A stretch of DNA of 64,000 nucleotides from assembly GCA_963666215.2 (NCBI GenBank), contig CAXWPL010000001.1:288001-352000 (forward strand). Direction: 5' to 3'. Source of the DNA: Acidobacteriota bacterium. GTDB lineage: Bacteria; Acidobacteriota; UBA890; WLXD01. A program made the translations under genes and the position numbers. The notes beneath the pieces were generated by a model that was given only the letters and a program-made list of their open reading frames with translations, was not told the origin of the DNA and did not search any database. Of this stretch, positions 2,566 to 30,384 are shown piece after piece (the first letter of the stretch is position 1; each line of letters opens with the position of its first letter).

Positions 2566-5260
2566 GTCGCAAACTCTACCGCTGGACGCTGGTCGCCTAC
2601 CCGCCCTCCTTCCGCAACGAGTACGGCGATGAGATGGCCGAGACCTTCGCGGTGGGTCTCCAGAGTGCCACCGGACTGCGCGCTCGACTGGGATTCGTGC
2701 TCCGCTCGGGCCTCGACTTGGGAGTCTCTGCCGCGCGTCTGCGCCTGGATTCGCGGCGTGGTCGCGGCAAACGGGATGCCGATCATGGATTTGCTCGATT
2801 GGGCGGGCCTGGTCGACGTGGGAGCCGAGCAGGCGGCGACCGCACCGCAATCGACGGGTTGCTCAACGACCTCCGATTCTCGGCGCGCAGCCTTCTGCAT
2901 CGACCCGGCTTTGCTGCGATCGCCCTGATCACCCTGGCGGTGGGCATCGGCGCCAACGTCGCGATGTTCAGCCTCGTGAAGGCCACTCTTCTGCAGTCGT
3001 TGGGCTACGGCGAGCCCGAGCAGCTCGTAACGCTTCACTCGGCGATCGCGCGCGAGGGGATCGAGTTCGGACAGACCTCGATGGCCGACTTCCTCGACAT
3101 CCGTGAGCGCAACCGCGCCTTCGAAGCGGTTTCGCTGTGGTCATTTCGCTCCGCCAGCGTGGCCACCGACGAGGGCGCCGTGTGGATCTCTGGCGTGGCG
3201 GCGACAACCAACATCTTCGACCTGCTACAGGTGCGCCCTTTGTTGGGGAGTACATTCGCCATCGGCGACGACGGCCCCGACGGGCCGCGAAACGTGGTGA
3301 TCAGCGAGGGCCTGTGGAACACGCTGTTTGGCGGCCGCGCCGAGGCGATCGGAGAGTCGCTGCGTCTCGACGGCGTAGAGCACACAGTGGTCGGGATTGT
3401 GGCCGACGACGCAGCCTTTCCCGGTGGCACGCAACTGTGGGTGCCGCTGCCGCTCGAGCTCGAGAACGAGCCGCGCTATCGGCGAGTGTACTGGGGCTGG
3501 CGCGCGTAAAGCGCAACACCAGCGCGCTACAACTGCGGGAAGACCTCGACCGGATTGCAACCGAGCTCGCCAATGAGCACGAGGCCAGCAACGGTGGCGT
3601 TGCGCTGGCGACCCAGTCGGTGCACGACTATCGCTTTGGGCAGATGCGCGCGGCGCTCACGCTGGCCAGCGGAGCGGGCGCCGCTCTGCTCTTGATCGTG
3701 TGCGCTAATCTCGCGAACCTGCTGATCGCCCGTGGACTCGACCGCGCCAACGAGGTCGGCGTCCGCAGTGCCCTAGGCGCGAGCCAGGGACGGATCATCC
3801 GGCAACTGGCCACCGAGAACGCGTTGTTGGCCGTCGTCGGTGGCGCACTTGGCTTGGCCCTGGGTACCGGTCTCACAGCGGGCATCGATCGCTACGTTGC
3901 CGCCAACGGAACAGACTGGATCAACGTCAGCGTCGATGGGGGCGTGATCGTGTTCACGGTCGGCGTCTGTTTCCTGTCGACACTTCTGTTCGGTTTTCTG
4001 CCGGCGGTGGGCCTGGCACGGCAGGGCGCGAGATCGATTGCCGGAACCACGGGCCGATCGCGCGCCACCAGTGCCGGCCTACGATCGTCGCTCGTCGTCG
4101 TCGAGGTTGCGATCTCAACGGTGCTGCTGGTGGCAGCGGGACTCATGGTCCGCAGCCTGGTCGAGCTGCGTTCGGTCGACCCCGGGTTCGACCCCGAAGC
4201 CAGCTTGACCGTCACGATTCGACTACCCGCGGCGAACTACCGCTGGCTCGCGCGCGCCGACTTCGTACGCGCCACCGAGGAGAGCCTGGCCACGCTGCCG
4301 GGCGTTCAGGCGGTGGGTACGAGCGCAATGGTGCCGCTGGCAGGCACGGCATTCACGTCTGTTATCAGGTCTGGGCAAACTCCGGAGGAGGCACGCGGCA
4401 ATCCGCCGGTTCATTTCATGCCGGTCAGCGCCGGCTTCTTCAAAGCCATGGGAATACCTCTGCAGACTGGACGACTGTTCGAGGCCGACGACGGGCAGCG
4501 CGACGAGAACGGCGATCTGCTCGGCCGACCGGTCGCGATCGTCAACCGGACGATGGCCGAGCGCCTCTGGCCCGGGCGCGATCCGGTGGGGCTCGGCTTC
4601 CGCACAACCGGTGATGAGCAAGACACCATCGTGGTGGGAGTCGTCGGAGACGTGCGACAGGTCTCGCTGCGCGAGAGCTCAACGCTGCAGATGTATGTGC
4701 CGTTCGCGCAAGACCCCTGGCGGCTGATGAGCTTCGTCTTACGCACCGCGGGCGACCCACTGGCGCTCGCCGACGGCGCACGAGCGGTGATCCAGCAGGG
4801 AGATCCAGAGCTCGCGATCGCGCGCGTGGCGACGCTCAGCGATGTGCTGCAACAATCGCTGACAACAGAGCGCCTGTTCACCACACAGTTTTGGATGATC
4901 GGCGCCGTCGCTCTCGGACTCGCGGCCATTGGCCTTTATGGATTGATCACCCACTCGATCTCGCAACGAACGCGGGAGATCGGTATCCGCATGGCACTCG
5001 GTGCACGCTCAGCGAGCCTCGTTGTGATGGTGACCCGCCAGGCTGTCGGACTGGTTGCGCTGGGACTGGTGCTCGGCCTGGGAGCGGCCGTGGCGGGCTC
5101 GCGACTCCTGGAGAGCCAGCTGTTCGCCGTCAGTGCGCTCGACCCCGCGACCTACGCCGGCGTCGCCATCGCCCTACTGGCAGTAGCCGCGATCGCCGCC
5201 GCTGCGCCGGCACGACGGGCCGCGCGGGTGGAGCCGACTCAATCGTTGCGCAGCGAGTAG
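2562..5260 (+). CDS. ADOP-type duplicated ABC permease (MacB/FtsX), split by a 1-bp frameshift near 3493-3496
   Basis: ORFs 2562-3509 (DLRFSARSL..PGF, LAVGIGAN) and 3137-5260 (LLIVCANLANL, EVGVRSALGA, REIGIRMALGA, ARRAARVEP) join if one G is added to the GGGG run. Confidence 0.85.
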
Positions 5261-7723: not shown

Positions 7724-7945
7724 ATGAACGAGCTCGAGCCGTGCTGCCGAACCGAGGCTGAAAATACCCTCCGTCGCCATCGCGATGTCGCGGTGTGCGA
7801 CGACTGCGGCCAGCTCCTGCTCGCCTACGGCAACAATGCCGACTATGAGGCAACGCTCCAGGAGCTCGGCGACCACGCGGTTTCCTTCCAAGCCGGCACT
7901 CTGAGCCTGCCCGCCAAGCTGCTCGTGATCTCGAAAGAACGTTGA
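7724..7945 (+). CDS. Small Cys-containing hypothetical protein
   Basis: 73 aa with CC and CxxC (VCDDCG). Its stop overlaps the patatin start. Confidence 0.55.
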   Translation: MNELEPCCRTEAENTLRRHRDVAVCDDCGQLLLAYGNNADYEATLQELGDHAVSFQAGTLSLPAKLLVISKER

Positions 7946-10131
7946 CCGTGCGGCCGCCTGGGCTCTTGGCATCGATCGCCCTCTTCGGAGCAATCGGAGT
8001 ATTGGGCGCACTCCCCGCCAAGGCGCATGCTCAGGCGTCGCCGCAGCCCCGGTGCCGACTCGGCCTCGCGCTCAGCGGAGGCGGCGCCCGCGGCATCGCC
8101 GAGCTCGGCGTTCTGCAAGCATTCCAAGAGGCCGGCGTCCACGTCGACTGCATCGCGGGGGCGAGTGTGGGCGCGATCATTGGCTCGCTCTACGCCAGCG
8201 GCTACGACCTGGCGAGCATCGAACGCCTGGTGCGAGAGCTCGACTGGCAGCAGCTCTACGCCGACCCTCACAATCGCAACCAGTACCCGCTCGTCCATCG
8301 TCTCGAGCGGCGCAGGACCGCGCTACGGCTGGGCATCGACAGCAGCGGCGTGAAGCTACCACGCGCCTTTCTGAACGACTACCTCGTCAACCGCGTGTTG
8401 ATTGAACATCTCGCCGAGGCAGGGTTCGCTGCCGGGCGCGATTTCTCGAGGCTGCCGATCTCCTTCCGCGCCGTTGGCACCGATCTGCACACCGGCGCCC
8501 GCGTCGTGCTGGCGAGTGGCGACCTCGGCCGCGCGGTGCGCAGCAGCATGTCGGTACCCCTCGCCTACCCGCCGGTGGAGTGGAACGAGTACCTGCTGGT
8601 TGACGGCGGGCTGGTCGACAACATCCCGGTCAGCCTGATTGCCGAGATGGGAGCCCAGTTCACCGTAGCGGTCGATGTGTCGACACCCATCACACCGGAA
8701 GCAACACCCGATGTGTTCGGTGTTACCTCGCGCATCATCGACCTGCTGTACGACGCCAAGAACAGCATCCACTACCGCGAGCCCGACTTGCTGATCAAGC
8801 CGGAGCTTGGCGACCACTCGTTCGCCGACTATTCCGACATCGACAAGCTCATCGACCTTGGCCACGCGGCCGCCTCGAAGGCCATCGAGGAGATTCCCGC
8901 CGAATACCGTCTCGGACCCGGCGGCACGGCACCGGCGGCAAGCGACAGCGCGCCAGGCGCCGTAATCGGGCTGCAGCAGCGCAGCGTCAGCGAGATCCGC
9001 GTCAGCGGCAATCGTTACGTCAACAGCGACGTGCTGCGCCATGAGTTCGGCATGCGCCCGGGTGACCGACTCGATCTAACGCGAGCTCTGCGCGGCCTCG
9101 ACCATGTGTTCTCCTCCGGGCTGCTCGACAGCGCATGGCTCGACTTCATCCCCGACGGCGACGAGGAGGCGATTGTCGAGATTGTTGTTCGCGAGCAGTT
9201 CCGCCGCACGCTCGACGTGGGCCTCGCCTACCAAAACGACGATCAAGCGCAAGCCTACGCGGCAATCGAGCTGCGCAACGAATTGGGCGCTGGCGAGCGA
9301 CTGATGTTCCGCTTTCTGGCCAGCGAGAAGGACCTGGTCCTCGGGGTCCGCGTGCGCAGCGACCAGATCTTCGGCAGCCACTTCGGTTATCAGATCGACA
9401 TCGAGTCGCACCGGGAGAAGCCTAAGGTGTACCGCGACGGGGCCCTCGTGAACCGCGCGGAGTTTCAACGCAGCGACGCGCGCATCCTGGCCGTGGTGCC
9501 AATCGCCTCGCAGCACCTGATCCAGCTCGGATTCCGATTCGGCGAGGTCGATGTCGGTGACCGCCTGGGCCTCGATATCCCCGCGATCTCATTCCAGCAT
9601 CGTGGCCTGCTGGCTCGCTATCTGTGGGACGACCTCGACGCGGTGGTTCTACCAACCAGCGGGCGCCAGCTGACGGTGAATGTGGAGCGTAATCTCAGCG
9701 GGCTCAACTCCACCGCGGCGTACTGGCGAGGCGAGGCGAGCGGACGGGCGATAGTCACGATCACCGACCGCTGGACGCTCGACGCGCGTGCGCGTTTCGG
9801 CTACTCCTCGGGCGCGCTGCCGATCCACGAGCAGTTTCGGCTCGGCGGCCCCGACTACGTACCAGGCCTCGACCGCGAGGAGCTGTGGAACAACCATCTG
9901 CTGGCTGGCAGCGCCGCGGTTGGCTACGAGCTGATGGCCGGAGCACGCGTGACAGCCCGTCTGGGCGCTGGCAATTCGTGGGCCGAGTTCGGCGAAGTCG
10001 ACCCGGCCGACCTAGGAGTGGGGGCTGCGTTGGGGGTGATCTTCTCCACCCCGATCGGCCCCCTGCGCTTCGAGTACGGCTTCGCCGATGGCGATCGCAG
10101 CGAGCTCTACGTCGCGCTTGGGCATCAGTAG
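7942..10131 (+). CDS. Patatin-like phospholipase with POTRA and Omp85/BamA-type barrel (PlpD/type Vd-like)
   Basis: Signal peptide, GGGARG, GASVG (GxSxG), DGG, POTRA (IRVSGNRYV), C-terminal TPIGPLRFEYG..LYVALG. Confidence 0.9.
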   Translation: MTVRPPGLLASIALFGAIGVLGALPAKAHAQASPQPRCRLGLALSGGGARGIAELGVLQAFQEAGVHVDCIAGASVGAIIGSLYASGYDLASIERLVRELDWQQLYADPHNRNQYPLVHRLERRRTALRLGIDSSGVKLPRAFLNDYLVNRVLIEHLAEAGFAAGRDFSRLPISFRAVGTDLHTGARVVLASGDLGRAVRSSMSVPLAYPPVEWNEYLLVDGGLVDNIPVSLIAEMGAQFTVAVDVSTPITPEATPDVFGVTSRIIDLLYDAKNSIHYREPDLLIKPELGDHSFADYSDIDKLIDLGHAAASKAIEEIPAEYRLGPGGTAPAASDSAPGAVIGLQQRSVSEIRVSGNRYVNSDVLRHEFGMRPGDRLDLTRALRGLDHVFSSGLLDSAWLDFIPDGDEEAIVEIVVREQFRRTLDVGLAYQNDDQAQAYAAIELRNELGAGERLMFRFLASEKDLVLGVRVRSDQIFGSHFGYQIDIESHREKPKVYRDGALVNRAEFQRSDARILAVVPIASQHLIQLGFRFGEVDVGDRLGLDIPAISFQHRGLLARYLWDDLDAVVLPTSGRQLTVNVERNLSGLNSTAAYWRGEASGRAIVTITDRWTLDARARFGYSSGALPIHEQFRLGGPDYVPGLDREELWNNHLLAGSAAVGYELMAGARVTARLGAGNSWAEFGEVDPADLGVGAALGVIFSTPIGPLRFEYGFADGDRSELYVALGHQ

Positions 10132-11727
10132 TTGACGACTCCGAACCCGTCGAGAGAGCCCTCCGCATCGTCCAGAGAAGGACGAACCCCGCAGCGCCAA
10201 GGCGCGCGGCAGATCCAGATGGCTCTGCTCGTGCTCATCGTCCTGTGGGCCGGTTGGGTCCGCACCCACGGAATCGCTCGGACCGGCTTCTCTCCCGACG
10301 AGGAGATCACGCGCCTGGCGGTGCAAGCGGTGCGCGACCACGGACTGCCGCAGCTACCGTCCGGGGAAGTTTACGTCCGCGGCATCGCCTACACCTATGC
10401 GGCGTGGGCGGCGGGCTCGATCTTGGGGCACGACCTGCCGAGCTACCGATGGCCGAGCTGGATCTTCGGGTTGGCAACGATGTTGATCATCTTTCTGATC
10501 GCACATCAGTCGGCCGGTCCAGTGGTGGCGCTTGCGGCACTGGCGATGGTCGCGGTCTCCGACAGCCAGATCATGATGTCGAAGTGGGCCCGCTTCTACA
10601 CGCAGTTCCACTTCTTCTATTTCCTCACGCTCCTGCTCGCGATGCGCCGCAACTGGCGAGATTCGCCGCGGCTTCGCCTTGCCGCCGGCGCGTCGATGGT
10701 GATGTGCATCCTCAGCGCTCGACTCGGCGTGACGCTGCTGGCACTGCCCGTGTTCGAGTACCTACGCGGCTGGTGGGGGCGTCGTGGCGCGAGTGACCCA
10801 AGCGACGACGAGTCAGGGCGCACAGGTCTATCGAAGGGCACCGTACTCACGGCGGTTGGCGCCTTCCTCCTGTTTGCCGCGCTCGCCATGGTCGCTCCGC
10901 CGAGCCTTTCTCTACAGCCGGGAGCGTCGGCGATCTACGCCTGGAGGCATTGGCCAGCGAATGTCCTGCTGCTCGCCGCTGTTGCCGCAGCCTATCTCTG
11001 GATGAATCGGCTGCGCCTTTCTCGCCCGGTCGCGCTCTACGGCTGGATGTTGATGACGGGTTTGGTGGCGTTGGACCTCGTCGATCTCGGCCTGGTGCCG
11101 CGATACTTCGATCACCTTCGCCTGGTTTCTTGGTTGCTGCTGCTGCAAATGGCGCACGAGGCGTTCCCTGCCGCCGCCGCCGACGGTCATGGTGTGGCCC
11201 CGCGCCGCGTGTCGGCGGAGACGGTCGCAGTCCTGTTGCTGGCCGTGGCCATGGTAGTTGTCGACAACACCCGAGCTTTCGGCACCGACCCACTTTCGCC
11301 TGCGCCGCTTACCAGCGGGGCGGTGCCCCTGACGATCGACGTCGACGGCTGGCAGCAAGCGAAAGATCTCATCCGGCCAGACGACCTGGTTCTGACCAAC
11401 GACGAGATCGTCGGCGGCCAGATCGCCGGACGCGTTGATTGCTGGATGCTGTCGGAGTTCCACCCAGGCCAGTCCGAGATCCAATTCACCGACGCGGGCC
11501 AGCGCGGCTACTACCGTGGGTCGCCAATCTGCTGGCGACTCGACGTGGAACTGACAGTTGAGCGGCTACAGCCAGGCCGGCGGCTGACGATGCTGCTGGT
11601 CGACTCCGTGAAGAACACGAGTGGCGATTGGGACGACTTGCTCGCCGACCTTGCGTCCCGCGATGAGCTCCTCTCCAGCCGCACGCGCCACGGCTCGTTG
11701 ACACTCTTCCACGTGTCAAGAAACTAG
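10132..11727 (+). CDS. GT-C membrane glycosyltransferase (ArnT/PMT-like)
   Basis: First TM followed by FSPDEE, multiple TMs, and the SKWARFY motif. Confidence 0.7.
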   Translation: MTTPNPSREPSASSREGRTPQRQGARQIQMALLVLIVLWAGWVRTHGIARTGFSPDEEITRLAVQAVRDHGLPQLPSGEVYVRGIAYTYAAWAAGSILGHDLPSYRWPSWIFGLATMLIIFLIAHQSAGPVVALAALAMVAVSDSQIMMSKWARFYTQFHFFYFLTLLLAMRRNWRDSPRLRLAAGASMVMCILSARLGVTLLALPVFEYLRGWWGRRGASDPSDDESGRTGLSKGTVLTAVGAFLLFAALAMVAPPSLSLQPGASAIYAWRHWPANVLLLAAVAAAYLWMNRLRLSRPVALYGWMLMTGLVALDLVDLGLVPRYFDHLRLVSWLLLLQMAHEAFPAAAADGHGVAPRRVSAETVAVLLLAVAMVVVDNTRAFGTDPLSPAPLTSGAVPLTIDVDGWQQAKDLIRPDDLVLTNDEIVGGQIAGRVDCWMLSEFHPGQSEIQFTDAGQRGYYRGSPICWRLDVELTVERLQPGRRLTMLLVDSVKNTSGDWDDLLADLASRDELLSSRTRHGSLTLFHVSRN

Positions 11728-12893: not shown

Positions 12894-15800
12894 CTACCGC
12901 CCCGAAGAAAGGTGCGCGCGGATGGCCGCGATGAAGCGTGGCACGGTCTCCCAAACGTCTCCGACGATGGGGTGAACGAGTGGCCGCGCGCGCTGCTCAT
13001 TGAGCCGCATCAGAGGCGCGGCCGGATCGATATTGAACGACAAGATCGTGGCGCGCTCGCCGATGTAGTCGACGTGCTGCGGCGCTCCTGAGACAGCAAG
13101 CGCGATGATCAGCCGCGGGTTAACGGCGAAGCCCGTCTGCCCGATCTGCCGGTCCATCGGCAGCAGCTCCAGGTCTTGAGTGACCTTGCGGGTGGCCCCG
13201 ATCATCACGCCCGGCAGGCCGAGCTCGTCGGCCAGCAGCTTGCGCAGCGGCTCGGCGAGTTGATCGATGCCGTCACGCCCGCCGGCACCGTAGCCGAAGT
13301 CGATGATGACCTCGGCGTCGGCAATCGACGTGTCGCCGGCGCCGAGTCGCGAGAGCAGCGTGGCAACGGGGTCGTCGGCAACACAATAGTCGAGCCGCGG
13401 CGACCAGTAGAACACCTGGCTGTCGGCCGAGCCGGGCATGGCGTACGAGGCACGGCCGAGGTCAACCTGCACGGACCGCCCCAGGGTGACCACTCGGAGT
13501 CCCTCACGCTGCTGGGGGGGCAGGCTGACGGCGGCAGCAGCGGCGCCGCCGTAGATAGGCGTCGCTAGTTGCACGCCGCGGCCCGCGGCGGACGCGTTGG
13601 GTCCGCTCGCTGCGCCGGAGCCGGCGGACAAGGGATCGTTCGCGATCGACTCGACGTTGAACCAGCTCCAACTCTGACGCCGCCCTGCACCCGGCGGCGC
13701 CGAGGCCATCAGACGAGAGAACAGCTCGTTCATCCAGCTCGTTCCCACCAGCCACTGCGGGCTGCCGCGATACATCGCCCACAGCTCTTCGAGCCACTCC
13801 AAGTGACCCGCGGCGCCGAAGCTGGCCATGCCATCGGCGGCGACTACGTAGATCCGTCGCGGTTCGGCGATCGCAGCCGCCCCGCCGGCAATCGCCGCCG
13901 CAGCCTCTTCGGCGCCGTCGATCGGCAGCACCAGATCGAGCGGCAGCCCTACGCCGTCTGCCAGCTGAGCGGCGGCGTGCAACTCCGGGCGTGCGCCCTG
14001 CCATAGCACGTCACCGAGGCTGGGCTCGCCGACGTAGATGCAGCTCGGGTCGGTATCGGTGGGCTGCTCACCAAAGCTCAGCAGGCGTCCACCGTAGGGA
14101 GAAACCACCTCGGAGGAGCTTCCGCCCCCGACCTGCGCGACCACGCGCTGCACAACGGCAGCCGCCTGCTCGGGAGTTGTCGCAAGCCCGCCGGCCACGG
14201 CATCCCCGTTGCTCCTGTTCAGTGACGAGACCCGCAGCCGATGGATCACGTGCGCCGACTCAGCGTCGGGAACAAGCGCCCGCATCGATAGGGTCTCGAT
14301 CTCGGCTGTCGACGCCCGCAGCAGCGCCGGCAACCGGTACTGCAACTCGCTGCCAGCATCACCGGCCATACCGAGCACGGCGGGCAACGCCTGCTTCAGG
14401 GCCGAGCCCTGCCACCCTGATCTGGAAACCTCGAGCGACGGCTCACCACCTGACGACCAACCCACTGTCTCGACCTGCGCGTGCACCGAAGAGCCGAGCA
14501 GCGTGGCCAGATACGGAGCAAGCAATCCTTGTTCGGTATCGGCGGCGCGGTCGCCGCAGAGCACGAGATCGGCCGGCTCGAGTCGAAGCGCAGCGGCGAG
14601 GGCGTCGGCAATAAAGCGCGGATCGTGGGCCACAGCGGCTGGATCGCCAAACGGCGCCGCACCGTTGCCATCGCCGACGCCATCCGCTGTTTCGCCCGGC
14701 TCGATGCTCACCGCGCGATCCACCCCCAGCGCCAGCGCTTCGCGGAGCAACGTCGTCGCTGGTGTGCCTGCGACCGCGTAGGCAACCACCTCCACTCGCG
14801 CAGCATCTCGCGACTTGAGGCGTAGCGCCTCGGCGAGCCCGGCGCGATCGGCGGCGCTCAAGGTGTACATGGGCTCGGCGAATCCAGCGTTGTCGACGCG
14901 CGGCCGCGGGGCAGGCATCGGCACCGGCTTGAGCAGCACCGCGATGCGAACCGGTGCTGCAAGCGGCGCATGGATCGGCCCAGGGACCAGACGCTTCGGC
15001 ATCAGGCCCCAGCCCTCGGTGCGTGTCCCATGCTCCTCGAGCGAGAGGTATCCGAGTTGCAGCTCCGGGGGCCGCGCATTGCGTTCCAGGTACTCGAAGG
15101 AGCTGCGGTAGCGGCGCTCCAGCGTGGCGATCCGCGCCAGCGCCCGGCGCACGAACACCCGGGCCGCGCGCTCGACACACTGCCGGTGCTCGGCCTCTAC
15201 CTGATGTCGAACACACCACGACAAGCGATAGAGCACGGCGTCGATGACCTTCGTGAGACCGGCAATCTCGGGCAGTCGGAACATGCACGGCTGCAGCCCC
15301 ACGTTGGCCCAGATCTGTTGATCGAAACGCCGGACCGCCTCCACGAGGAGCTCGCGCAGAGTCGACTTGGCACGCTCCAGCGCGGCGACGAGGTCGGCGG
15401 CGTCATCGAGGCTCGGCGGCTCGTCGACACCGCTCGACGCCGCCTGGTTTCCTGCATCGGCCGCTTCGTCCCACGACGGCAGAACACGCTGCACCAGGTC
15501 TTTGAGGAGCAGGAACCGCTGCACCTCGTTGGTGCCCTCATAGATGTTGAGCACGCGCGCGTCGCGCCGCGTCTTCTCGATACGATGCAGATGGGTTTGC
15601 CCCTCGAGACCGCGTAGCCGCTCCATCCAGTCGATGACGTCGTGCTCCGCCTCCGAGCCGTAGTACTTGCCGATGGCCGACTCCATACGCACGCTCTCGG
15701 TGTGCTTGTTGTCGAGCAGGCCCACGAGCTCGTAGGTGGTGCCGGCGGTTGCCATCAGCTCATCGGCAACTCGCCCCATCCAGTAGAGATCGAGTGGTCT

Positions 15801-18800
15801 GGCATCTGCAGGGCCGGTCCGATCAGAGTCGCCATGCTCCAGGCGGTCGGCCTCGCCAACCCCTTCCACCTGACTCTTTCTGGAAAGCAGCAGCTCACGC
15901 GCGTCTTCGACCATCTCCTGGATCGTGGCGTGCGTCGTCACCGCCAGCCCGGCGCGGCCCGTGTTGAGCGTTTCGAGCGCATTCACCTGCCCGCGGCCGC
16001 GGAAGCCGATGATGCCCTCACGCGGCACACGCACGTTATTGAACGACAGCTCATTGGTCGGCGAGCCCCTCTGTCCGAGCTTCTCCTCGTCGGCGCCCAC
16101 CACCAGGCCCTCGGCGTGGCGATCGACCATGAATCCGGTCACGCCTTCGGGCTCGGTGCGTGCGTAGAGCGCCATGCAATGCGAAAAGCGCCCGTTGGTG
16201 ATCCACATCTTCGAGCCGTTGAGCACCCAGAACTCGTATGTCAGTTGGCCTTCGACCTGACGGAGCTGGGCGATATCGGTGAAGTCGACCCGCCGGTCAC
16301 CATGCATGTAGAACCGCATGCGGTCGGGCGCATCTTTGTCGTAGTCGTAGTCGCTGTGATCGATCACCGCCGGATCTGCCTCGTCCGAATAACGGTAGAG
16401 AATGCGATGGTCGTCGTAGTCGAACTCGAGACGTTCGGCGTCGACCAGATTGCGGCGATCCGACTGGCCGTCTTCGTCGACGAAGAAGTGCAGCGACCCG
16501 TCGTCGTCGCGATGCACCCGGCGGCTCTCCAGACGGGCGAACGTCTTGACGCCGCCGGAGTCGGACCCGGCGGTCGGCTCGGTGAGCGCAAAAGCCGAGA
16601 TGTAGCCGGCCGAGATGAACTGCAGAAACTGCTCGTGGGCGAGCTCGCGACGCGGATACTCGGCAAGCCGATTGGCGGCTCCGTCGACGATGTCGCCGAG
16701 GAGATCCCGCGCCTCGCGAAGATGAGCCTCGAAGCCATCGATATCCCGCCGTTGGCCGGCGCGACCGGCGGCGAAGAAGGCTCGTAGAAAGCCACCGCCC
16801 AGATACTTGAGTACTGTCGACTTCACGACCCGTTTGCGCACCATGCCCATGAGCTCGGTGTAGTCGGCCGTGAGTTGCACGAGGTTCGGGCGCCGCATGG
16901 CGGCGATCAGCCGATCGACTCCGTCGCGGATGTCGCCAAGCAGCTCCGGGCTGCTGCGCACCTTCTCGAGCTCGGCCCGGGCCCTAGGCAGATCCTGCTC
17001 CATGCCAATGAGTACGGGGGTGGTGCCGATACTGGTGTTGGCCATGATCGCCAGCGACAACGCCGCGTCGCCGTAGCGGCCGATCAGCTTGCAAAGAACG
17101 TAGTACTCGGCCTTCAGCGCACCCCCGCCGCCGAGACGTTTAGGTATCGGCATGCGCATGAATCCGCGCTCGACCATGTAGTCGAGATCGACTTGCGGAA
17201 TGCGATGCAGCTTCTCGAGGTAGCGGTTGTAACTCAGACCCTCGAAGCTCGGCTCAACGAAGCGCGCCCGCAGCTCGCCCTCCAGTTCCTTCCAGTAGGA
17301 CGACAAGCCCGGATCGTTGTACAGAACCTCCGGGACGTAGCGCAGATGATCCGGGTCGAACGGCTCGACGAGCCAGGCTCCCGATCGATACTCGCGGTCT
17401 TCTGTACAGATCACGTCATAGCGTTCGGCGCTGGCGATGTTCGCGGCGCGCAGCTCGCCTTGGTCAAGCAGTTCCTCGCCGATGGCAACGGTCTCGGCCA
17501 GCAACGCGGCTTCGTCGGGGAGATTCGGCACTTCTGCCGCCAGCCGTTCAACCCACAACTTCGCCGCCTCGAGCGTTGCCTCGGCCGGTAGGCCTGCGTC
17601 GAGGCGCCAGAGAGCCCGCAGCAGGCATGCTTTGGCGCCCAATATGCGCACCACCGCGCCGCCTACCAGTTGCTGCAACGGTTCCTCTACCTCGCCTTTG
17701 CCTCGGACTGTTGCCGCCGCGATCGCACGCGCGATGGCGCTGGCGTCCACACCGGCCGCCCACGTTTCCACGATCTCGACCGCTTCCCGGAATCGCTCCA
17801 CGGTGATCGCGAACAACGGCTGGGCGGCGCCGAGCTCGAGCCACCACAGTTCGGCGTCGGACAGCGGTACCAGCCGCTCACCGTCCTCGACCGCGAGCAG
17901 GCGATCGCGGCCGACCTGCACGCGGAGAGCGTCGTCGTGCGCGATGAGAAAGCGGAACGGGCTGCTGTCGCGGTAGTACTTCGCAATAACGTCGTCTTCG
18001 GAGAAGGCGGTTCCGCCGAAGATCTGCCCGGCGTTGTAGGAGAAAGAGCCGAGCGCCGGTCCGAAAGCCTCGGCCGCAAGTACCTTGGCGGCGGGGGCGC
18101 CGGAGCACCTGCTGCCGGTGGCAGGGTTGTGCAGTGTCAGCGCCTCCACCAGATAGCGCTGCGCCTCCATCTCGGCGAGCAGTTGCTTAACGGCGCCGAA
18201 CTTGGCGATGGTGTCGCGGCCGGCCTCGTCTTCGAACGTTCCTGGGAACTGCACCCGGCCGCTGGCGTGGTCGCGAGCGCGGCCGAGAAGGTACTCGCCG
18301 GCGCCGCGCACAATCGCCAGCATGTCGCGTAGCGTGACGTCAATCAGGTCGGCCGCCGGCTCGCCGGCCACCGGCTGCTGCGCGGCGCGAGGGTCGCAGC
18401 CGGCTTCGAGCGACGGCAAAGCGATAACGTCGGCCGCCTCGACTTCATAGCCGTCGAAGCGCACTTGGCGGATGCCCGCACCCATCAGGCCGATCGTGCC
18501 AACATCGCGAACCTCCAACCGAGGGCCCGGCTGCTCGAGGTCGACGAGATAGGCCTTGTTGTCGTGGACCGCGACCAGCCGTGAGGCCAGCGCCAGCGGC
18601 ACGAAATTGAGCTCGCCGTGGAGGGTCGTGACGGTGGAGCTCTCGACTCGCAGCCAACCCTGATGAGCGCAGGCGGCCCACTTGCCACCGTCCCCGAGCG
18701 ACGGCGACGCGCCCTCGGACTTGTTCATCAGGTCCAAGGCTTGCAAATGCGAGGCAGCGAGCCAAGCGATGGCAGGGTCGGCGCGGGCTAGCTCTTCGAG

Positions 18801-21800
18801 AAGCACATCCCGGAAGCCGAATGCCGGAGTCGCGGGCTCGCCAGTTCCGCCCGGCTCGCGCCCGGCTCGTTCCGCCTCGGCGACGTTCTGACGTAGCCAT
18901 TCACGCTGCGCCTCTGTAGGCGCCTCGCCGTGCTCGAGTGCGCGCACCGCCTGGCTGCCAAAAAGCGACTCGCAGTCGGCGCGCAGCGTTTTGCGCCTGC
19001 TGGCGAGGCGCATCGGTTGCGCCTCGATCTCCCGCCAAGCCTGCGACCAGCGCCAGCGCTCGATGCGCTGAACGGCGGGGCTCGCAGCCGAACCGTAGGG
19101 CGCATCATCGGCGGCTTCCAGGAATTCGGTCGACGAGCTGGCGCCAACCGACTCGAACGTATCGAGCAGCGCATGCAGGCCCACGAAATGATGTTCGCGC
19201 AGCTGCTTGCCGAGCACCTCGGCCCAAAACGGCCTGCCCTGCTCGGCGTGTCCACGGAGCTCATCGAAGCGTTCGGTGGCGTCGTCCCACAGTGTGATCG
19301 CCGCTTCGCCTGCGAGCTCGCGCTCGGACGCCAGCGAATCGTCGCGCCACGCCTCGCGCGCTTCCGCGAACGCCGCACGCGCAGCATCGAGGAGTCCGCT
19401 GAGCTGCGCGCGGCCGCTGGGCTCGAGCGTCAGCGGCGCGGCCGCGAGCGCGTCGCCGTAGGCCTCGAGCGACGCTGCCGAGCGCTCCACACAGGCCCGA
19501 ACCGCCTGCAGCGGCAGCCGGCGGGCGGCGGGCGCTTCCGATCGAGCCTGCGACGCAAGCGGGCTCCAGTTGCGAGTCCAGTGGGGTGATGTCGATGTCG
19601 ATGTCGATGTCGACAAGGAGGCAGAGTCGACGGGAACCCGCGCCTGCGGCTCCGGGCGCTGCACAAGATAGTCATGCAACATCCGCTGAGCCGGACCGTA
19701 GGTCTGGTACACCAGCCGGTGTGGGGTGGCGCGGCTCCAGTGAACGTCGCCGGTGGCACGCCAACAGGCCTCGCACTTGATGCAGTTCTCGAAGTTCACC
19801 ACCACGCCCGGCATGCCGGCGCTGTTGCGACGGACCTCGTAGACCTTCGCCGGGCACACGTTCCACAACACCGAGTCTGCGAGCTTGGCCCTCGCGCCGA
19901 TGGGCTCGGGCCACAGCACCTTGATGTGCGAGTGGTGGCCCTCTCGATAGCTGATGGTGCCGAGCCTTTCCTCGTAGCTCGTCGTGTGACGCACGGTGTC
20001 GTCGTCGAGGCGGATGCGCTCGAGGTTTTCTTCTACGAGCTGGTTGGCGAACTGGCGGCGATACGCCGACCGATCCCACTTCAGCACGCCGAACTGCACC
20101 ATCTCGACCAGCCACTGGACGACAACGGTCAGCAGTAGCCCAACTCCGAGCGCTGCTGCCGCCAGCAGATCCCAAATCGCCACCTGCGCCGCGAACAGGC
20201 GCGCTGCTGTGCGCAGCTTGTCGCCGACGTCGCGATCGTCGTTGCGATAGATCGTCGAAAACGCCTCGGCCAGGGCCGGGCCGAAGCGCCGCCAGTACCA
20301 GCCGAACAACCAGGGAACACGGCCAGCTTCTTCGTCGCCGCCCATCACCCGGAACATGGCGCGCAGTCGCGCGCCCTGTGCGTCGATCGCCTCGCTGATG
20401 CCTGTACCCGGGCGTACAGTGCCGGCGAGCGGCTCGCCGCAAGCGCTGGAGCCCACGGCCGAACGCCGGCGATCGGGAAAGAAGGCTGCCAGCGTGTTGA
20501 TGAAGGCGCTGGCGAGGTTTCTTGGCGTCACAGCGGCCCGAACCAGGCCAGCGACACCGATCGTGCGCGAAAGGTCGGCGACGTCGGCCAGAATCGGCTT
20601 GCGCTTGCGCCAGGGCAGCGCCCGCCGCAGAAGGCGCACAAGCTGCCACCATCGACGCACACCGGAGCGGTTACGGCGCGACAGCACGAACGCCGAGTTG
20701 TTGATCACGTCGAGCTGACGCTCGAAGAACATCTGCGTGCGCTCGACGTAGCCCGGCCAGTCCTTCAGATACTCGACATTGCGGTAGTAGTGGCTCGCGT
20801 GCAGCTCTTTCAGGTACGTGCGCTGCAGCGCCGCCGCTGTGTACGGCGAAGCCGCGGGATCGAGTCCCCCTCCGCCGCCACCCCGACTCCGCGGCCCGCC
20901 GTTCTCAGCGGCAATCGCCTGCACCGCGCGGGCGAAGTACAGCCCCATCGCGGTGGCCGGGCCGGTGAAGTTCGGATACGGAAAATCGAGACCGATTCCG
21001 CTCGCGGCGCCACCGATGGCCAGACCATCGTCGACCATGCGAGGGACCTCCCGAAGACCGCCACCGCGGATGATCTTGGCGCCGTAGGAGCTCACGGTCC
21101 CGCCGTCGATCAGCTTGGCGATCTCGGGCAACGCCTTGAACCACTCCATCAGCAGGTTGTGGTCGCCCTGGAAGTTCTCTTTCAGATTGTCGAGCGGCAG
21201 CACGAAGCCGAGCGAGATGCTGTCGGCGTTGGTGTACAGGAAGCCGCCCATGTTGAGGCGCGCCGTGCGGCCGTTGCGCGTGGCGTTGCGCAGCAACATC
21301 TCGTACGCCGCACCATGTCCCTCCCCTTCGCCGAGCCCGAACCGGCGATCGATCTCGTCGGCCGGGAGCGAGATCACCTCCTTCACGCCCTGCAGGAAGT
21401 GCGGCGCTCCGTGCGCCTGCTCCTCGGGAGAGACACGCTCGTAACCCTCCTGGGTCACCAGATGCGACGCATCGCCCTCGGCGAGAAAAACCACGTCGGC
21501 GTACGCCGGCCCACGCTCGGTGTGGACACCGATCACGCGTCCGCGATGACGGATCAGGCTCTGCACGGTGGTCTCGCAGGCCAGCACCACGCCATGCTCG
21601 CGCGCTACCTCGGCAAGATAGCGGTCATAAACCGGTCGCAGGACGGTGTAGCAGGAGTTGTAGACGCTGGCGCCGCGGACCGTAGCGCCGAGCAGCGTGT
21701 GCCCGTTGTAGAGAAAGGCGCCACGCTCGATGAGCCGCCGCTCGTAGGGTGCCGCCTCGACGGCCTCCCGGCCGAAAGCCTCTTCGTGCTCGAGGTTCTC

Positions 21801-21968
21801 GGTGAAGTAAACGGCGCCCGACCAGTTCTCGGCGCCCGGGAAGATGGCCGCTTCGCAGACGAGCACCGAGAAGCCAGCACGACCCAGCGCCGCCGCAGCG
21901 GTAACGCCGGCCGGACCCGCACCTATGACTATGGCGTCGAAATGATCGCCAGCAGGGGCGTTCTTCAT
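12894..21968 (-). CDS. Giant fusion: FixC-like flavoprotein / FixX-like ferredoxin / degenerate ACAD / ACAD / ETF-beta / ETF-alpha
   Basis: One open frame over 9 kb. FixC: GAGPAG, GVKEVI, GGFLYTN. FixX: CPAKVY and CIKCEAC. ACAD1: GRVQF, QIFGG. ACAD2: FALTEPTAGSD, LNGSKMWITNG, EKLGQRGSPT, IYEGTNEVQR. EtfB: VLLKPVP, EALALGVD, DLVLCGD. EtfA: QIGQTG, SGAPQH. Start placed at MKNAPAG (ORF track starts at 22040). Confidence 0.9.
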   Translation of the reverse strand: MKNAPAGDHFDAIVIGAGPAGVTAAAALGRAGFSVLVCEAAIFPGAENWSGAVYFTENLEHEEAFGREAVEAAPYERRLIERGAFLYNGHTLLGATVRGASVYNSCYTVLRPVYDRYLAEVAREHGVVLACETTVQSLIRHRGRVIGVHTERGPAYADVVFLAEGDASHLVTQEGYERVSPEEQAHGAPHFLQGVKEVISLPADEIDRRFGLGEGEGHGAAYEMLLRNATRNGRTARLNMGGFLYTNADSISLGFVLPLDNLKENFQGDHNLLMEWFKALPEIAKLIDGGTVSSYGAKIIRGGGLREVPRMVDDGLAIGGAASGIGLDFPYPNFTGPATAMGLYFARAVQAIAAENGGPRSRGGGGGGLDPAASPYTAAALQRTYLKELHASHYYRNVEYLKDWPGYVERTQMFFERQLDVINNSAFVLSRRNRSGVRRWWQLVRLLRRALPWRKRKPILADVADLSRTIGVAGLVRAAVTPRNLASAFINTLAAFFPDRRRSAVGSSACGEPLAGTVRPGTGISEAIDAQGARLRAMFRVMGGDEEAGRVPWLFGWYWRRFGPALAEAFSTIYRNDDRDVGDKLRTAARLFAAQVAIWDLLAAAALGVGLLLTVVVQWLVEMVQFGVLKWDRSAYRRQFANQLVEENLERIRLDDDTVRHTTSYEERLGTISYREGHHSHIKVLWPEPIGARAKLADSVLWNVCPAKVYEVRRNSAGMPGVVVNFENCIKCEACWRATGDVHWSRATPHRLVYQTYGPAQRMLHDYLVQRPEPQARVPVDSASLSTSTSTSTSPHWTRNWSPLASQARSEAPAARRLPLQAVRACVERSAASLEAYGDALAAAPLTLEPSGRAQLSGLLDAARAAFAEAREAWRDDSLASERELAGEAAITLWDDATERFDELRGHAEQGRPFWAEVLGKQLREHHFVGLHALLDTFESVGASSSTEFLEAADDAPYGSAASPAVQRIERWRWSQAWREIEAQPMRLASRRKTLRADCESLFGSQAVRALEHGEAPTEAQREWLRQNVAEAERAGREPGGTGEPATPAFGFRDVLLEELARADPAIAWLAASHLQALDLMNKSEGASPSLGDGGKWAACAHQGWLRVESSTVTTLHGELNFVPLALASRLVAVHDNKAYLVDLEQPGPRLEVRDVGTIGLMGAGIRQVRFDGYEVEAADVIALPSLEAGCDPRAAQQPVAGEPAADLIDVTLRDMLAIVRGAGEYLLGRARDHASGRVQFPGTFEDEAGRDTIAKFGAVKQLLAEMEAQRYLVEALTLHNPATGSRCSGAPAAKVLAAEAFGPALGSFSYNAGQIFGGTAFSEDDVIAKYYRDSSPFRFLIAHDDALRVQVGRDRLLAVEDGERLVPLSDAELWWLELGAAQPLFAITVERFREAVEIVETWAAGVDASAIARAIAAATVRGKGEVEEPLQQLVGGAVVRILGAKACLLRALWRLDAGLPAEATLEAAKLWVERLAAEVPNLPDEAALLAETVAIGEELLDQGELRAANIASAERYDVICTEDREYRSGAWLVEPFDPDHLRYVPEVLYNDPGLSSYWKELEGELRARFVEPSFEGLSYNRYLEKLHRIPQVDLDYMVERGFMRMPIPKRLGGGGALKAEYYVLCKLIGRYGDAALSLAIMANTSIGTTPVLIGMEQDLPRARAELEKVRSSPELLGDIRDGVDRLIAAMRRPNLVQLTADYTELMGMVRKRVVKSTVLKYLGGGFLRAFFAAGRAGQRRDIDGFEAHLREARDLLGDIVDGAANRLAEYPRRELAHEQFLQFISAGYISAFALTEPTAGSDSGGVKTFARLESRRVHRDDDGSLHFFVDEDGQSDRRNLVDAERLEFDYDDHRILYRYSDEADPAVIDHSDYDYDKDAPDRMRFYMHGDRRVDFTDIAQLRQVEGQLTYEFWVLNGSKMWITNGRFSHCMALYARTEPEGVTGFMVDRHAEGLVVGADEEKLGQRGSPTNELSFNNVRVPREGIIGFRGRGQVNALETLNTGRAGLAVTTHATIQEMVEDARELLLSRKSQVEGVGEADRLEHGDSDRTGPADARPLDLYWMGRVADELMATAGTTYELVGLLDNKHTESVRMESAIGKYYGSEAEHDVIDWMERLRGLEGQTHLHRIEKTRRDARVLNIYEGTNEVQRFLLLKDLVQRVLPSWDEAADAGNQAASSGVDEPPSLDDAADLVAALERAKSTLRELLVEAVRRFDQQIWANVGLQPCMFRLPEIAGLTKVIDAVLYRLSWCVRHQVEAEHRQCVERAARVFVRRALARIATLERRYRSSFEYLERNARPPELQLGYLSLEEHGTRTEGWGLMPKRLVPGPIHAPLAAPVRIAVLLKPVPMPAPRPRVDNAGFAEPMYTLSAADRAGLAEALRLKSRDAARVEVVAYAVAGTPATTLLREALALGVDRAVSIEPGETADGVGDGNGAAPFGDPAAVAHDPRFIADALAAALRLEPADLVLCGDRAADTEQGLLAPYLATLLGSSVHAQVETVGWSSGGEPSLEVSRSGWQGSALKQALPAVLGMAGDAGSELQYRLPALLRASTAEIETLSMRALVPDAESAHVIHRLRVSSLNRSNGDAVAGGLATTPEQAAAVVQRVVAQVGGGSSSEVVSPYGGRLLSFGEQPTDTDPSCIYVGEPSLGDVLWQGARPELHAAAQLADGVGLPLDLVLPIDGAEEAAAAIAGGAAAIAEPRRIYVVAADGMASFGAAGHLEWLEELWAMYRGSPQWLVGTSWMNELFSRLMASAPPGAGRRQSWSWFNVESIANDPLSAGSGAASGPNASAAGRGVQLATPIYGGAAAAAVSLPPQQREGLRVVTLGRSVQVDLGRASYAMPGSADSQVFYWSPRLDYCVADDPVATLLSRLGAGDTSIADAEVIIDFGYGAGGRDGIDQLAEPLRKLLADELGLPGVMIGATRKVTQDLELLPMDRQIGQTGFAVNPRLIIALAVSGAPQHVDYIGERATILSFNIDPAAPLMRLNEQRARPLVHPIVGDVWETVPRFIAAIRAHLSSGR
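19588..19611. repeat. (GATGTC)x4 tandem repeat encoding a Ser/Thr linker in the giant ORF
   Basis: Four exact hexamer copies, in frame, encoding the STSTSTST stretch just after the ferredoxin module. Confidence 0.85.
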
Positions 21969-22092
21969 GAAGAATGATTGCGCCGAGATTGCCCCGGACG
22001 GGGCGAATGATGAGGTCATGGTAAGGGATGCGCCGCGCACCGGCCAGACGGCCTGCTAGGCTTCAGTGCTCCCACCCACGGAGACCGGATTG

Positions 22093-28821: not shown

Positions 28822-30384
28822 GTGTCTGAATTAAAACAACTTAGCCTACTCGACAGGCTCGAGGAGCCCTACGAAGCCCTGCTGACACCAAACGAAATTT
28901 TCAAACTGCTCGATGCGGACATGCTCAGGCGACTGGCCGAGGACCGGAGAATCGAATGGAAACCCGCCAGTTTTCAAGGCCATCCGCTCGGAGAATACAT
29001 CTCGATGTGGGCGAACACCGCCCCCGAGGGCGGCATCATAGTCATTGGTGTTTCCGATGACGGTCGCTTGGAAGGTCTTCGGGCAAAAGGAGATCCATAC
29101 ATCAACAAGATGGAGAAGAACCCTCGCACCTTTTGCCCAGACGCAATTGTCGAAACGTCTCGAATACCGGTCACCAACACAAAGGATAACTGCGACTTCG
29201 TACTCGCCTTTCGAGTTCAGTACCACAAGAGCCGCGTCGTCAAAACAAACAAAGGCCGAGCATATACTCGACGGGGCGATTCTAAGTACGAAGTTCATGG
29301 TGCCGAGTTGCTCGAGCTGCAAGCCGACAAGGACGAGCTCAGCTTCGAAGCGGAACCAAGTCGTCTTTCCTATCCGGATGAATTCGATCTCAAGGCTATT
29401 CGATCCTTTACTGAAAACGTCGCCGGAATACGGGACATGGAGGAGGGCCACACTCGAGAGGACATCTTGTCTCTGATGCACCTTGGTGACAGTACGACGG
29501 GAGAGTTTCAGCCGAACATCGCGTGTACCCTGCTATTCGCAAAGGACTCCCGAAAGGAGATTCCGGGATGCAGGGTCAGGTTTCTCAGGTTCGATGGGGA
29601 CGAAGAAGGAACCGGAGGGAAATGGAACGCGGTCAAGGATGAGGTAATCGATGGCCAAGTACCACAGATGATTGTGGAAACGGACACGCTTATCGAATCC
29701 CAGATTCGCACTTTCTCGAGGCTGGATTCGAACGAACGATTCACGCCACAGCCCGAATACCCCAAAACAGCTTGGCATGAAGCGATCGTAAACGCGTGCG
29801 TGCATCGCTCCTACGGGAATGGTCTGAAAACCACGAACATCTTCGTGAAGATGTTTGACAACCGGCTGGTCATTGAGAGCCCCGGTGGATTTCCGCCATT
29901 CGTAACCCCGGAGAACATCTACGATACCCACCGTCCGAGAAATCCGTACTTGATGGAAGCCATGCGACATCTTGACTTCGTGAAATGCGCACACGAAGGG
30001 ACGCGTCGAATGCGCGCGGTCATGTCGAAGATGTCCTTACCAGATCCAGAATTCCAGGAAAAGGAAAGCGGCAGCTTTCGTGTGCGGGTCACGCTTCGGA
30101 ATAACGTTCATCAACGAAAGGCGTGGGTGGACGTTGATGTAACGGAAGTGATCGGCACTTTGCTCGCTCAGCAATTAGACGAAAACGAGAAGCGATTCGT
30201 GAACTTCATCGCAGAGCATGGTGAATTGAATGTGACCGAAGCCGGCCGACTATCCAGGCTGAGCTGGGCGACTGCCAAGAAAATCCTGATGAAGCTGGTA
30301 GAACGGGGCATTCTTCGCCACGATCGTCGCCGCGATATCGATCGCGATCCTCATGCCAGGTTTAGGCTCAACAAACCGGAATAA
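28822..30384 (+). CDS. Schlafen/AlbA_2 domain + RecG-C-like HATPase + wHTH protein
   Basis: EDRRIEWK..WANTAPEGGIIVIGVSDDG (AlbA_2), EAIVNACVHRSY, DNRLVIESPG, RNPYL, EGTRRM, C-terminal HTH. Confidence 0.85.
   Translation: MSELKQLSLLDRLEEPYEALLTPNEIFKLLDADMLRRLAEDRRIEWKPASFQGHPLGEYISMWANTAPEGGIIVIGVSDDGRLEGLRAKGDPYINKMEKNPRTFCPDAIVETSRIPVTNTKDNCDFVLAFRVQYHKSRVVKTNKGRAYTRRGDSKYEVHGAELLELQADKDELSFEAEPSRLSYPDEFDLKAIRSFTENVAGIRDMEEGHTREDILSLMHLGDSTTGEFQPNIACTLLFAKDSRKEIPGCRVRFLRFDGDEEGTGGKWNAVKDEVIDGQVPQMIVETDTLIESQIRTFSRLDSNERFTPQPEYPKTAWHEAIVNACVHRSYGNGLKTTNIFVKMFDNRLVIESPGGFPPFVTPENIYDTHRPRNPYLMEAMRHLDFVKCAHEGTRRMRAVMSKMSLPDPEFQEKESGSFRVRVTLRNNVHQRKAWVDVDVTEVIGTLLAQQLDENEKRFVNFIAEHGELNVTEAGRLSRLSWATAKKILMKLVERGILRHDRRRDIDRDPHARFRLNKPE

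Follow-up and report, generated by a model that had tools for sequence, protein, structure and literature searches.

Acyl-coenzyme A (acyl-CoA) dehydrogenases (ACADs), electron transfer flavoproteins (ETFs) and the oxidoreductases ETF-QO (ETF:quinone oxidoreductase) and FixCX are, in textbooks, separate proteins, and the alternation of the ETF flavin adenine dinucleotide (FAD) domain is still studied on transient complexes. The fusions that we found among known proteins, as far as the excerpted sources go, are all partial ones: ETF-QO, which unites FixC and FixX; EtfB-EtfA; and an ACAD with an EtfA head domain. The last of these is said to be a butyryl-CoA dehydrogenase of Fusobacterium nucleatum that carries EtfA domain II, has three domains and sends electrons to a flavodiiron protein, reportedly from work by Bystrom and Wolthers in 2024; as it is cited in the excerpt, it combines an ACAD with the EtfA FAD head domain and is without EtfB, FixC/FixX and a second ACAD unit. 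Here we describe a gene in which all of these modules stand in one chain. It lies on the minus strand of a 64,000-nucleotide stretch of DNA (the window) from an Acidobacteriota bacterium (assembly GCA_963666215.2, contig CAXWPL010000001.1, positions 288,001 to 352,000), occupies window positions 12894..21968 and encodes modules in the order FixC-FixX-ACAD'-ACAD-EtfB-EtfA. We predict, with a probability of about 0.65, that its product of ~330 kDa is a single-chain acyl-CoA:quinone oxidoreductase, in which the first step of beta-oxidation is joined to its own electron-delivery line. This function had been proposed in an earlier note on the same DNA, and the conserved cofactor and catalytic motifs make it the best supported one.

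The same functional modules, in the same presumed electron order, are found as separate genes for an ACAD, for EtfB and EtfA and for FixABCX or ETF-QO. There, five or six polypeptides meet by diffusion or non-covalently, whereas here they form one chain, in which the second ACAD subunit is a degenerate copy. An unfused, ACAD-linked fixABCX cluster is described from deep-sea Chloroflexi in the available part of one report (PMC5736913). The ETF end of the fusion resembles SaETF of Sulfolobus acidocaldarius, presented in an excerpted account as a monomeric EtfB-EtfA protein reported to bifurcate with two FADs (PMC12042025). Both proteins have EtfB followed by EtfA in one polypeptide; SaETF, as excerpted, is an ETF alone, whereas the ETF of the fusion shares its chain with an ACAD and a quinone reductase, and it apparently lacks the nucleotide site of the ETF base.

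The listing of open reading frames (ORFs) of the window gave a single ORF, 12894..22040 on the minus strand, that translated without a stop into 3,048 amino acids; the next-longest among the ORFs overlapping the 10- to 25-kb part of the window had 940. At the G+C content of this region (~67%), stops would make up ~2.3% of random codons, and the chance of 3,000 stop-free codons is then ~1e-31 (our arithmetic, not the output of a tool), so that a frame of this length is not a product of chance. The frame is open upstream as far as a GTG at 22040. The start codon is likely the ATG at 21968, which is Met25 in the numbering of the 3,048-residue ORF that we use throughout, because a database copy of the protein (P0002) begins there (MKNAPAG) and the homologues have a few residues ahead of the FAD motif. 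Read in this way, the coding sequence comprises 3,024 codons from ATG 21968 followed by the stop codon at 12894-12896, in agreement with the stop-free frame of ~9 kb, and with the limits 12894-21968, given earlier.

Pfam and NCBIfam scans, profile matches and fold comparisons agreed on the order of the six modules and placed them near the positions at which the earlier note had read them. Structures were predicted for two segments, residues 25-800 and 1001-2200, with input alignments from sub-ranges of 49-50 loci, and invariance was counted over 25 full-length homologues and over sub-alignments of 50-51 sequences from five phyla. The N-terminal module (residues ~30-495; 20556..21953, minus strand, as for all modules below) is a FixC/EtfC-like, FAD-dependent quinone-reductase module. 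Residues 32-453 matched NCBIfam PRK10015 (E value 3.2e-45) and PRK10157 (E 1.4e-41), and the GxGxxG of this part (G40/G42/G45) was invariant in the family. The model of residues 25-800, with a mean predicted local distance difference test score (pLDDT) of 87.3 and a predicted template modeling score (pTM) of 0.89, had as its best structural match EtfC of Thermotoga maritima (7koe_C; Foldseek E 2.5e-27; VIA Z 35.2, root-mean-square deviation [rmsd] 2.4), of which 426 of the 438 residues were aligned to the FixC part. Next came porcine ETF-QO (2gmh_A; Z 30.9, rmsd 3.3, 475 residues aligned, model residues 7..756 on chain residues 33..583). The N-terminal profile matched 7koe and 2gmh with E values of 1.1e-54 and 4.1e-19, respectively. 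The 2gmh_A alignment spans the FAD and iron-sulfur domains and skips an insert of ~210 residues, which indicates that the iron-sulfur domain sits as in ETF-QO.

This FixX or ETF-QO-type [4Fe-4S] domain (residues ~705-790; 19671..19928) was recognized by Fer4_ETF_QO (PF05187) at residues 716-759, with 22.9 bits in the scan of the whole protein (cut-off 24) and with 29 bits, over the cut-off, in a genome search. Cys729 and the Cys753-x2-Cys756-x2-Cys759 group were invariant in 25 of 25 and 50 of 50 sequences. Residues 650-800 hold these four cysteines only, in the pattern CP...C-x2-C-x2-C, which is also that of Escherichia coli FixX, and the eight cysteines of the two-cluster EtfX type are absent. 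The fusion thus differs in having one cluster from T. maritima EtfX, which has two [4Fe-4S] clusters according to the available part of its description (PMC10734219). The EtfX chain of 7koe was not among the 60 sequence matches listed for the N-terminal profile, so that the assignment of the iron-sulfur domain rests on Pfam, the cysteine pattern and the superposition on ETF-QO. Like ETF-QO and the FixC-FixX part of EtfABCX, the fusion has the FAD domain, an ETF-QO-like four-cysteine domain and, presumably, the role of passing electrons from the ETF FAD to quinone; it differs from them in that this part makes up the first fifth of a chain of 3,024 residues and contains the long insert with a hydrophobic helix.

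The insert (residues ~496-704; 19929..20555) is specific to the family and consists of helices and a small sheet; a Pfam scan of residues 460-720 returned no family. A hydrophobic stretch had been read between FixC and FixX, and we found it at residues 627-645, where the mean Kyte-Doolittle hydropathy of 2.17 is the maximum of the whole protein. It belongs to a long helix (residues 622-652; 20085..20177; helix 598-628 of the model) that is a candidate membrane anchor. Among 51 sequences, the aligned segment had a Kyte-Doolittle value of at least 1.6 in 42, the letters themselves not being conserved. There is no signal peptide, as the N terminus opens directly with the FAD motif. The proposal of a membrane tether therefore survived in part: the conserved hydrophobic helix supports it, whereas a single pass through the membrane would part FixC from FixX, which are packed together in the model. 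Helix 622-652 is, on the model, more likely a monotopic anchor near the quinone site.

A poorly conserved linker or helical region with a Ser/Thr repeat (residues ~791-1000; 19041..19670; low identity, many gaps and no Pfam hit) leads from the quinone end to two ACAD units. The second of these (unit 2; residues ~1561-2345; 15006..17360) is of the long FadE/VLCAD type and is predicted to be the catalytic acyl-CoA dehydrogenase, with Glu2168 as its base. All three of its Pfam domains scored over their cut-offs: the N domain at 1609-1677 (PF02771, 27.5 bits against 22.9), the middle domain at 1936-2003 (PF02770, 69.2 against 33.3) and the C domain at 2093-2179 (PF00441, 69.3 against 22.4). A match to NCBIfam FadE (E 3.8e-48) reached residue 2311, and among PDB chains the unit 2 profile matched CarC (9.3e-61) and VLCAD (6.8e-60). 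The motifs TEPxAGSD, KMWITN and IYEGTNE, the last of which contains Glu2168, were invariant; Y2167, E2168 and G2169 were present in 25 of 25 and 51 of 51 sequences, and this YEG fell on the IYEGT of CarC. The model of residues 1001-2200, which takes in both units, had a pLDDT of 87.1 and a pTM of 0.88, and long ACADs of the VLCAD/ACAD9 type were its top Foldseek matches.

The first unit, which we call ACAD prime (residues 1001-1390; 17871..19040), has the complete three-domain ACAD fold: residues 1-390 of the same model matched many ACADs with VIA Z scores of 31-32.6 and rmsd values of 2.8-3.0 over 328-341 residues. Its fold begins ~60 residues before the place earlier given to it, and only its C domain was seen in the Pfam scan of the middle part (PF00441 at ~1250-1364; E 2.8e-6, 28 bits against 22.4). 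The earlier reading of unit 1 as an ACAD thus holds for the fold but not for the active site. In a weak hhalign alignment of the two units (probability 52.6%, E 1.4e-4), the sequence L-I-A of ACAD prime stood opposite Y-E-G, FVPL opposite WITN, and QIFGGTAFSEDD opposite RGLEGQT of unit 2, so that at the aligned positions, including the Glu position of the MCAD/Bcd type, ACAD prime has neither the WITN-type flavin segment nor a catalytic Glu; the position opposite the Glu was not conserved across the family. ACAD prime has kept a strongly conserved loop, QxFGGTAxSEDD...YRD, which unit 2 has lost. In ACAD dimers, this loop makes contact with the FAD bound by the opposite subunit. Since the catalytic Glu is lost while the loop is retained, ACAD prime is, by analogy with those dimers, probably a non-catalytic, built-in partner of unit 2 rather than a second dehydrogenase.

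Such pairs are known among heteromeric ACADs: in ChsE4-ChsE5, an ACAD-fold partner without an active site of its own pairs with a catalytic one. Both ChsE4-ChsE5 of Mycobacterium tuberculosis (4x28) and Tcur3481-Tcur3483 (6wy8) were among the structural neighbors of ACAD prime (Z 29.8-30.0). The two units of the fusion differ from these in being covalent and in tandem, with a helical bridge of ~170 residues between them (residues ~1391-1560; 17361..17870; helices 395-527 of the model of residues 1001-2200), and their packing as a dimer is our proposal. A phmmer search with residues 800-1600 against 1.84 billion representatives returned 113 proteins, the long ones all of fusion length; ordinary ACADs were not among the 113, and ACAD prime therefore appears to be specific to the fusion family.

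The ETF part follows as a weakly conserved EtfB-like module (residues ~2355-2610; 14211..14978), an EtfA domain I-like part with approximate boundaries, drawn from profile alignment to CarE and 5ol2_A (residues ~2665-2900; 13341..14048), and EtfA domain II, the FAD "head" domain (residues 2901-3048; 12897..13340). Residues 2392-2592 matched the ETF beta family (PF01012, 41 bits against 26.7) and mft_etfB (E 4.5e-17), and the module profile found EtfB chains in the PDB at 1.5e-26 to 4.4e-13; residues 2903-3042 matched the FAD domain of ETF alpha (PF00766, 54.6 bits against 27). In a profile of the C-terminal 700 residues, EtfB chains aligned at positions 16-250 and EtfA chains at 286-642, with E values from 4e-35 to 4.4e-13. 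Conservation is divided unevenly over these parts. All 50 sequences compared share SGAPQH, RKV and QIGQxG of the EtfA head domain; the modules with the least conservation in the protein were EtfB and EtfA domain I, with 24-32% column identity and almost no invariant residues. According to the excerpted part of PMC8958531, 447 of 449 canonical ETFs have an Arg in domain I that, together with a highly conserved EtfB peptide (D-G-D-T-A-Q or D-D-D-S-N-Q, the zipper), holds adenosine monophosphate (AMP) or a second FAD. The family has conserved neither. Depending on which hidden Markov model (HMM) alignment, to CarE or to 5ol2_A, was used, the column of the Arg held E20 D7 A6 P4 or the neighboring N17 E13 A7 R4 (n = 50), and the first Asp of the zipper, aligned by eye, was D in 3 of 50. 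We infer that the nucleotide site of the ETF base is degenerate and that the enzyme is non-bifurcating, because the base is without these near-universal residues while the electron-transferring FAD site is invariant.

Together, these features suggest a path through the chain. Unit 2, the catalytic ACAD (residues ~1561-2345), would dehydrogenate an acyl-CoA at its FAD, with Glu2168 as the base; ACAD prime (1001-1390) would be paired to it within the chain and stand in for the second subunit that an ACAD dimer would have. The EtfA head domain (2901-3048), which is mobile, would then receive the electrons singly at its FAD and hand them to the single [4Fe-4S] cluster (Cys729/753/756/759), and from there they would reach the FixC-type FAD (30-495) and finally the membrane quinone. 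The hydrophobic helix, most likely a monotopic anchor, would fasten the quinone end of the chain to the membrane. The ETF base, made of EtfB and EtfA domain I, would have been retained as a scaffold; with its nucleotide site degenerate, it would not support bifurcation. Cofactor loading, the substrate, the direction of electron flow and membrane binding are what we infer in this scheme from sequences and models.

The continuity of the gene could be followed in sequencing data. The stretch of the window holding the gene was found in 20 sequencing runs of 11 studies, and contigs of four runs from four studies covered it in three overlapping pieces with no gaps, insertions or deletions, the piece breaks at ~16190-16226 and ~21134-21167 being overlaps of pieces. 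No stop or frameshift was found at the module junctions in these contigs, and the relatives have the modules fused, not as separate genes. A variant strain in one run differed by 30 listed substitutions, of which 16 were synonymous and 14 non-synonymous, none of them producing a stop. At 16190-16226 (35 bases), many unrelated contigs attach in all four runs, and the word depth there was 19-50, against ~5-15 elsewhere. This segment, which encodes the most conserved ACAD segment, is evidently shared near-identically with other members of the community. None of the 24 runs returned was an RNA run, and the data are silent on expression.

The protein is a member of a family. A homologue search gave 247 proteins of at least 1,676 residues at 90% clustering, the full-length ones listed having 2,385-3,036 residues and the same Pfam set, and a scan of species-representative genomes gave 176 relatives. 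We fetched 77 of these 176 loci, all of them from metagenome bins. Complete open frames of 2,480-3,053 residues with the co-linear fusion were present in 50 of the 77, from five phyla; all segments were present in 48 of these 50, L072 and L047 being truncated at one end. Forms from Verrucomicrobiota were shorter, chiefly within residues 801-1560, and the smallest, with 2,480 residues, is one of them. Four loci were interrupted or masked: L062 and L047 by runs of N, L072 by a frame change (~10834-11320) and L076 by an in-frame stop (16628-16630). A further relative, in genome G012 (contig G012:C5), had one TAA inside the fusion gene. The interruptions in L076, L072 and G012 may stem from sequencing errors, from recent decay of the gene or from natural splits. 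Within the window's order, the fusion occurred in 22 of 25 other genomes, namely 10 of 10 of the same family and 12 of 15 of the sister family, and it occurred in none of five genomes from five other families of the phylum.

A FastTree tree of 49 sequences omits L072 and L047, and each of these two loci is also missing from one sub-alignment, owing to the frame change and the N runs, respectively. In this tree, from which we drew neither root nor donor, the window falls within an Acidobacteriota clade that has full support; four of the phyla formed one clade each, and Planctomycetota were split. One Acidobacteriota genome carried two full-length fusion paralogues, in different Acidobacteriota sub-clades (L008 and L030; also G008:C15 and G008:C14). 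Two loci, L028 and L068, are labeled Alcaligenaceae, and the one in the tree, L028, nested among Gemmatales, which suggests a mis-binned contig or a transfer. In databases, proteins of the family, including the cluster members of 10 homologues, bear automatic names only, such as "acyl-CoA dehydrogenase family protein" or "ETF-quinone oxidoreductase."

A mis-assembled chimera, or read-through of adjacent genes in GC-rich DNA where stops are rare, would be an artefact or a dead gene. The assembly has five contigs and a completeness of 91.7% and is probably a metagenome bin, one other gene of the window may be frameshifted, and there are the few interrupted relatives named above; but four independent assemblies agreed without gaps, their pieces overlapping at the two unitig breaks, the co-linear fusion recurs in 50 complete loci of five phyla with linkers that vary in length and never contain stops, and both modelled segments fold as compact multi-domain bodies (pTM 0.88-0.89). 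We therefore regard an artefact as extremely improbable and the fusion as real, as the earlier note had argued, and we read the gene as one under selection. A real enzyme might instead bifurcate or confurcate electrons in the manner of FixABCX or Bcd-Etf; the ACAD would then form one arm, and the enzyme would also use reduced nicotinamide adenine dinucleotide (NADH) and either ferredoxin or flavodoxin. EtfC from the bifurcating T. maritima EtfABCX is the nearest match of its N-terminal module, the EtfA part finds its strongest PDB matches in bifurcating ETFs (CarE, 4e-35, and 5ol2_A, 2.9e-34, compared with 7.5e-25 for human ETF alpha), and the EtfB part of the window's protein (P0001) keeps D-T-x-Q, like the bifurcating zipper as given in the excerpted source (PMC8958531). 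This reading is nevertheless very unlikely, for the family has not conserved the domain I Arg, on which both ETF classes rely to bind their nucleotide, the zipper is variable, EtfB and EtfA domain I are the parts that have diverged most, and one four-cysteine cluster stands where T. maritima EtfX, as described in the available part of its report, has two (PMC10734219). The chain might also run backward, as a (mena)quinol-dependent enoyl-CoA reductase, for example at low oxygen, with electrons passing from quinol through the FixC FAD, the [4Fe-4S] cluster, the ETF FAD and the ACAD FAD to enoyl-CoA. We find no signal of direction in the sequence, and such a flow would be strongly unfavorable with ubiquinone on established redox potentials. 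The modules all belong to a reversible chain, enoyl-CoA respiration through an ETF and a membrane oxidoreductase is described for syntrophs in the excerpted part of one source (PMC8805022), and a genome with a separate ETF and FixCX leaves room for a distinct job for the fusion; on balance, the reversed direction is unlikely.

The remaining alternative keeps the forward chain and changes its substrate, to a special lipid, a branched or cyclic acyl-CoA or a carrier-bound thioester, with the fusion insulating its pathway from the general ETF pool. The genome has free ACADs, an ETF and FixCX of its own; unit 2 contains large, family-specific insertions with the invariant residues Y1898, D1899, Y1900, D1922 and R1927; and the top structural neighbor of ACAD prime is ColB1 (7xp7_A), whose substrate is tethered to a carrier, although ordinary ACADs tie with it. 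The best matches of unit 2 are nonetheless fatty-acyl enzymes (FadE, VLCAD, ACAD9, Bcd and CarC), and no conserved neighbor indicates a special pathway, so that we consider an out-of-the-ordinary substrate unlikely. Several observations weigh against the forward acyl-CoA:quinone oxidoreductase that we favor. No beta-oxidation genes adjoin the fusion gene, and the same genome holds a separate EtfA (G000:C2:564623-564865, from a genome profile search), a separate, stand-alone FixC-like gene directly followed by a FixX-like ORF (G000:C2:598000-599431, from the same search) and at least four free ACADs; because these unfused proteins are present, the fusion would be an additional rather than the general route, and it may serve a special substrate. 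Models for the single proteins scored under their curated cut-offs, the FixC model PRK10157 with 142.6 bits against 610 and the FadE equivalog NF058590 with 164.4 against 600, so that unit 2 is FadE-related but not an equivalog. The ubiquinone-binding domain PF21162 reached 17.7 bits against a cut-off of 27.7, although the fold still aligned with 2gmh over that region. The anchor segment was weakly hydrophobic in 9 of 51 homologues, with Kyte-Doolittle values below 0.7 in two; the mapping of the domain I Arg shifts by one column between the two HMM alignments and that of the zipper was made by eye; and the role given to ACAD prime at the FAD of its partner leans on general knowledge of ACAD dimers. 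We found no assay, proteomic or RNA evidence for any member of the family.

The genes upstream of the fusion gene are divergent and encode an amidohydrolase, a prephenate-dehydrogenase-like protein and MutY; downstream lies an uncharacterised ORF. When the ORFs flanking loci with long frames were clustered, no neighbor family was common to more than 12 loci, so that the fusion appears to be self-contained, and the neighbor families that are common reflect synteny within phyla. Other genes in the window had been described as broken by frameshifts. In a loose check, we found one candidate only, a MacB/FtsX permease at 2562-5260 (plus strand), where an ORF with MacB_PCD (2562-3509) and an ORF with MacB_PCD and FtsX (3137-5260) overlap in different frames; either a frameshift or a fault in the assembly may explain the split. 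At 7942-10131 (plus strand), the window encodes a 729-residue protein with a patatin-like phospholipase domain and an Omp85 domain, which resembles the outer-membrane lipases of the PlpD type. Between ~26000 and 34000, the G+C content is 0.55-0.60, compared with ~0.65 elsewhere, and an ORF at 28822-30384 has Schlafen AlbA_2 and HATPase_c_4 domains; this part may be an acquired island.

A literature search found no description of the six-module fusion, which may be mentioned elsewhere. The architecture thus still appears uncharacterised, as had been supposed, with the amendment that the protein is not unique but belongs to a family with 247 hits at 90% clustering. We conclude that the fusion is a real, conserved and so far undescribed form of a well-known electron-transfer system, and we predict its function with moderate confidence. 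There is perhaps an even chance that this is the first described natural enzyme with the whole path from the oxidation of a C-C bond to the quinone pool in one polypeptide, with a dead ACAD as a built-in dimer partner and with an ETF base that does without the nucleotide that glues its subunits together; in that reading, the nucleotide would be dispensable because the modules are covalently linked. If so, the protein would be a ready-made object for following, on single particles, how the ETF head moves from donor to acceptor; it would also be a natural test of why ETF keeps AMP. With its fixed 1:1:1 stoichiometry, it would offer one object of ~330 kDa for cryo-electron microscopy and for kinetics of the whole path, and it may serve in engineering as a template for wiring acyl-CoA oxidation straight to the quinone pool. 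The family also holds two evolutionary experiments, a pseudo-ACAD partner and an ETF base seemingly without the near-universal residues of its nucleotide site, carried by abundant and poorly cultured phyla of soil and water: Acidobacteriota, Planctomycetota, Verrucomicrobiota, Gemmatimonadota and Nitrospirota.

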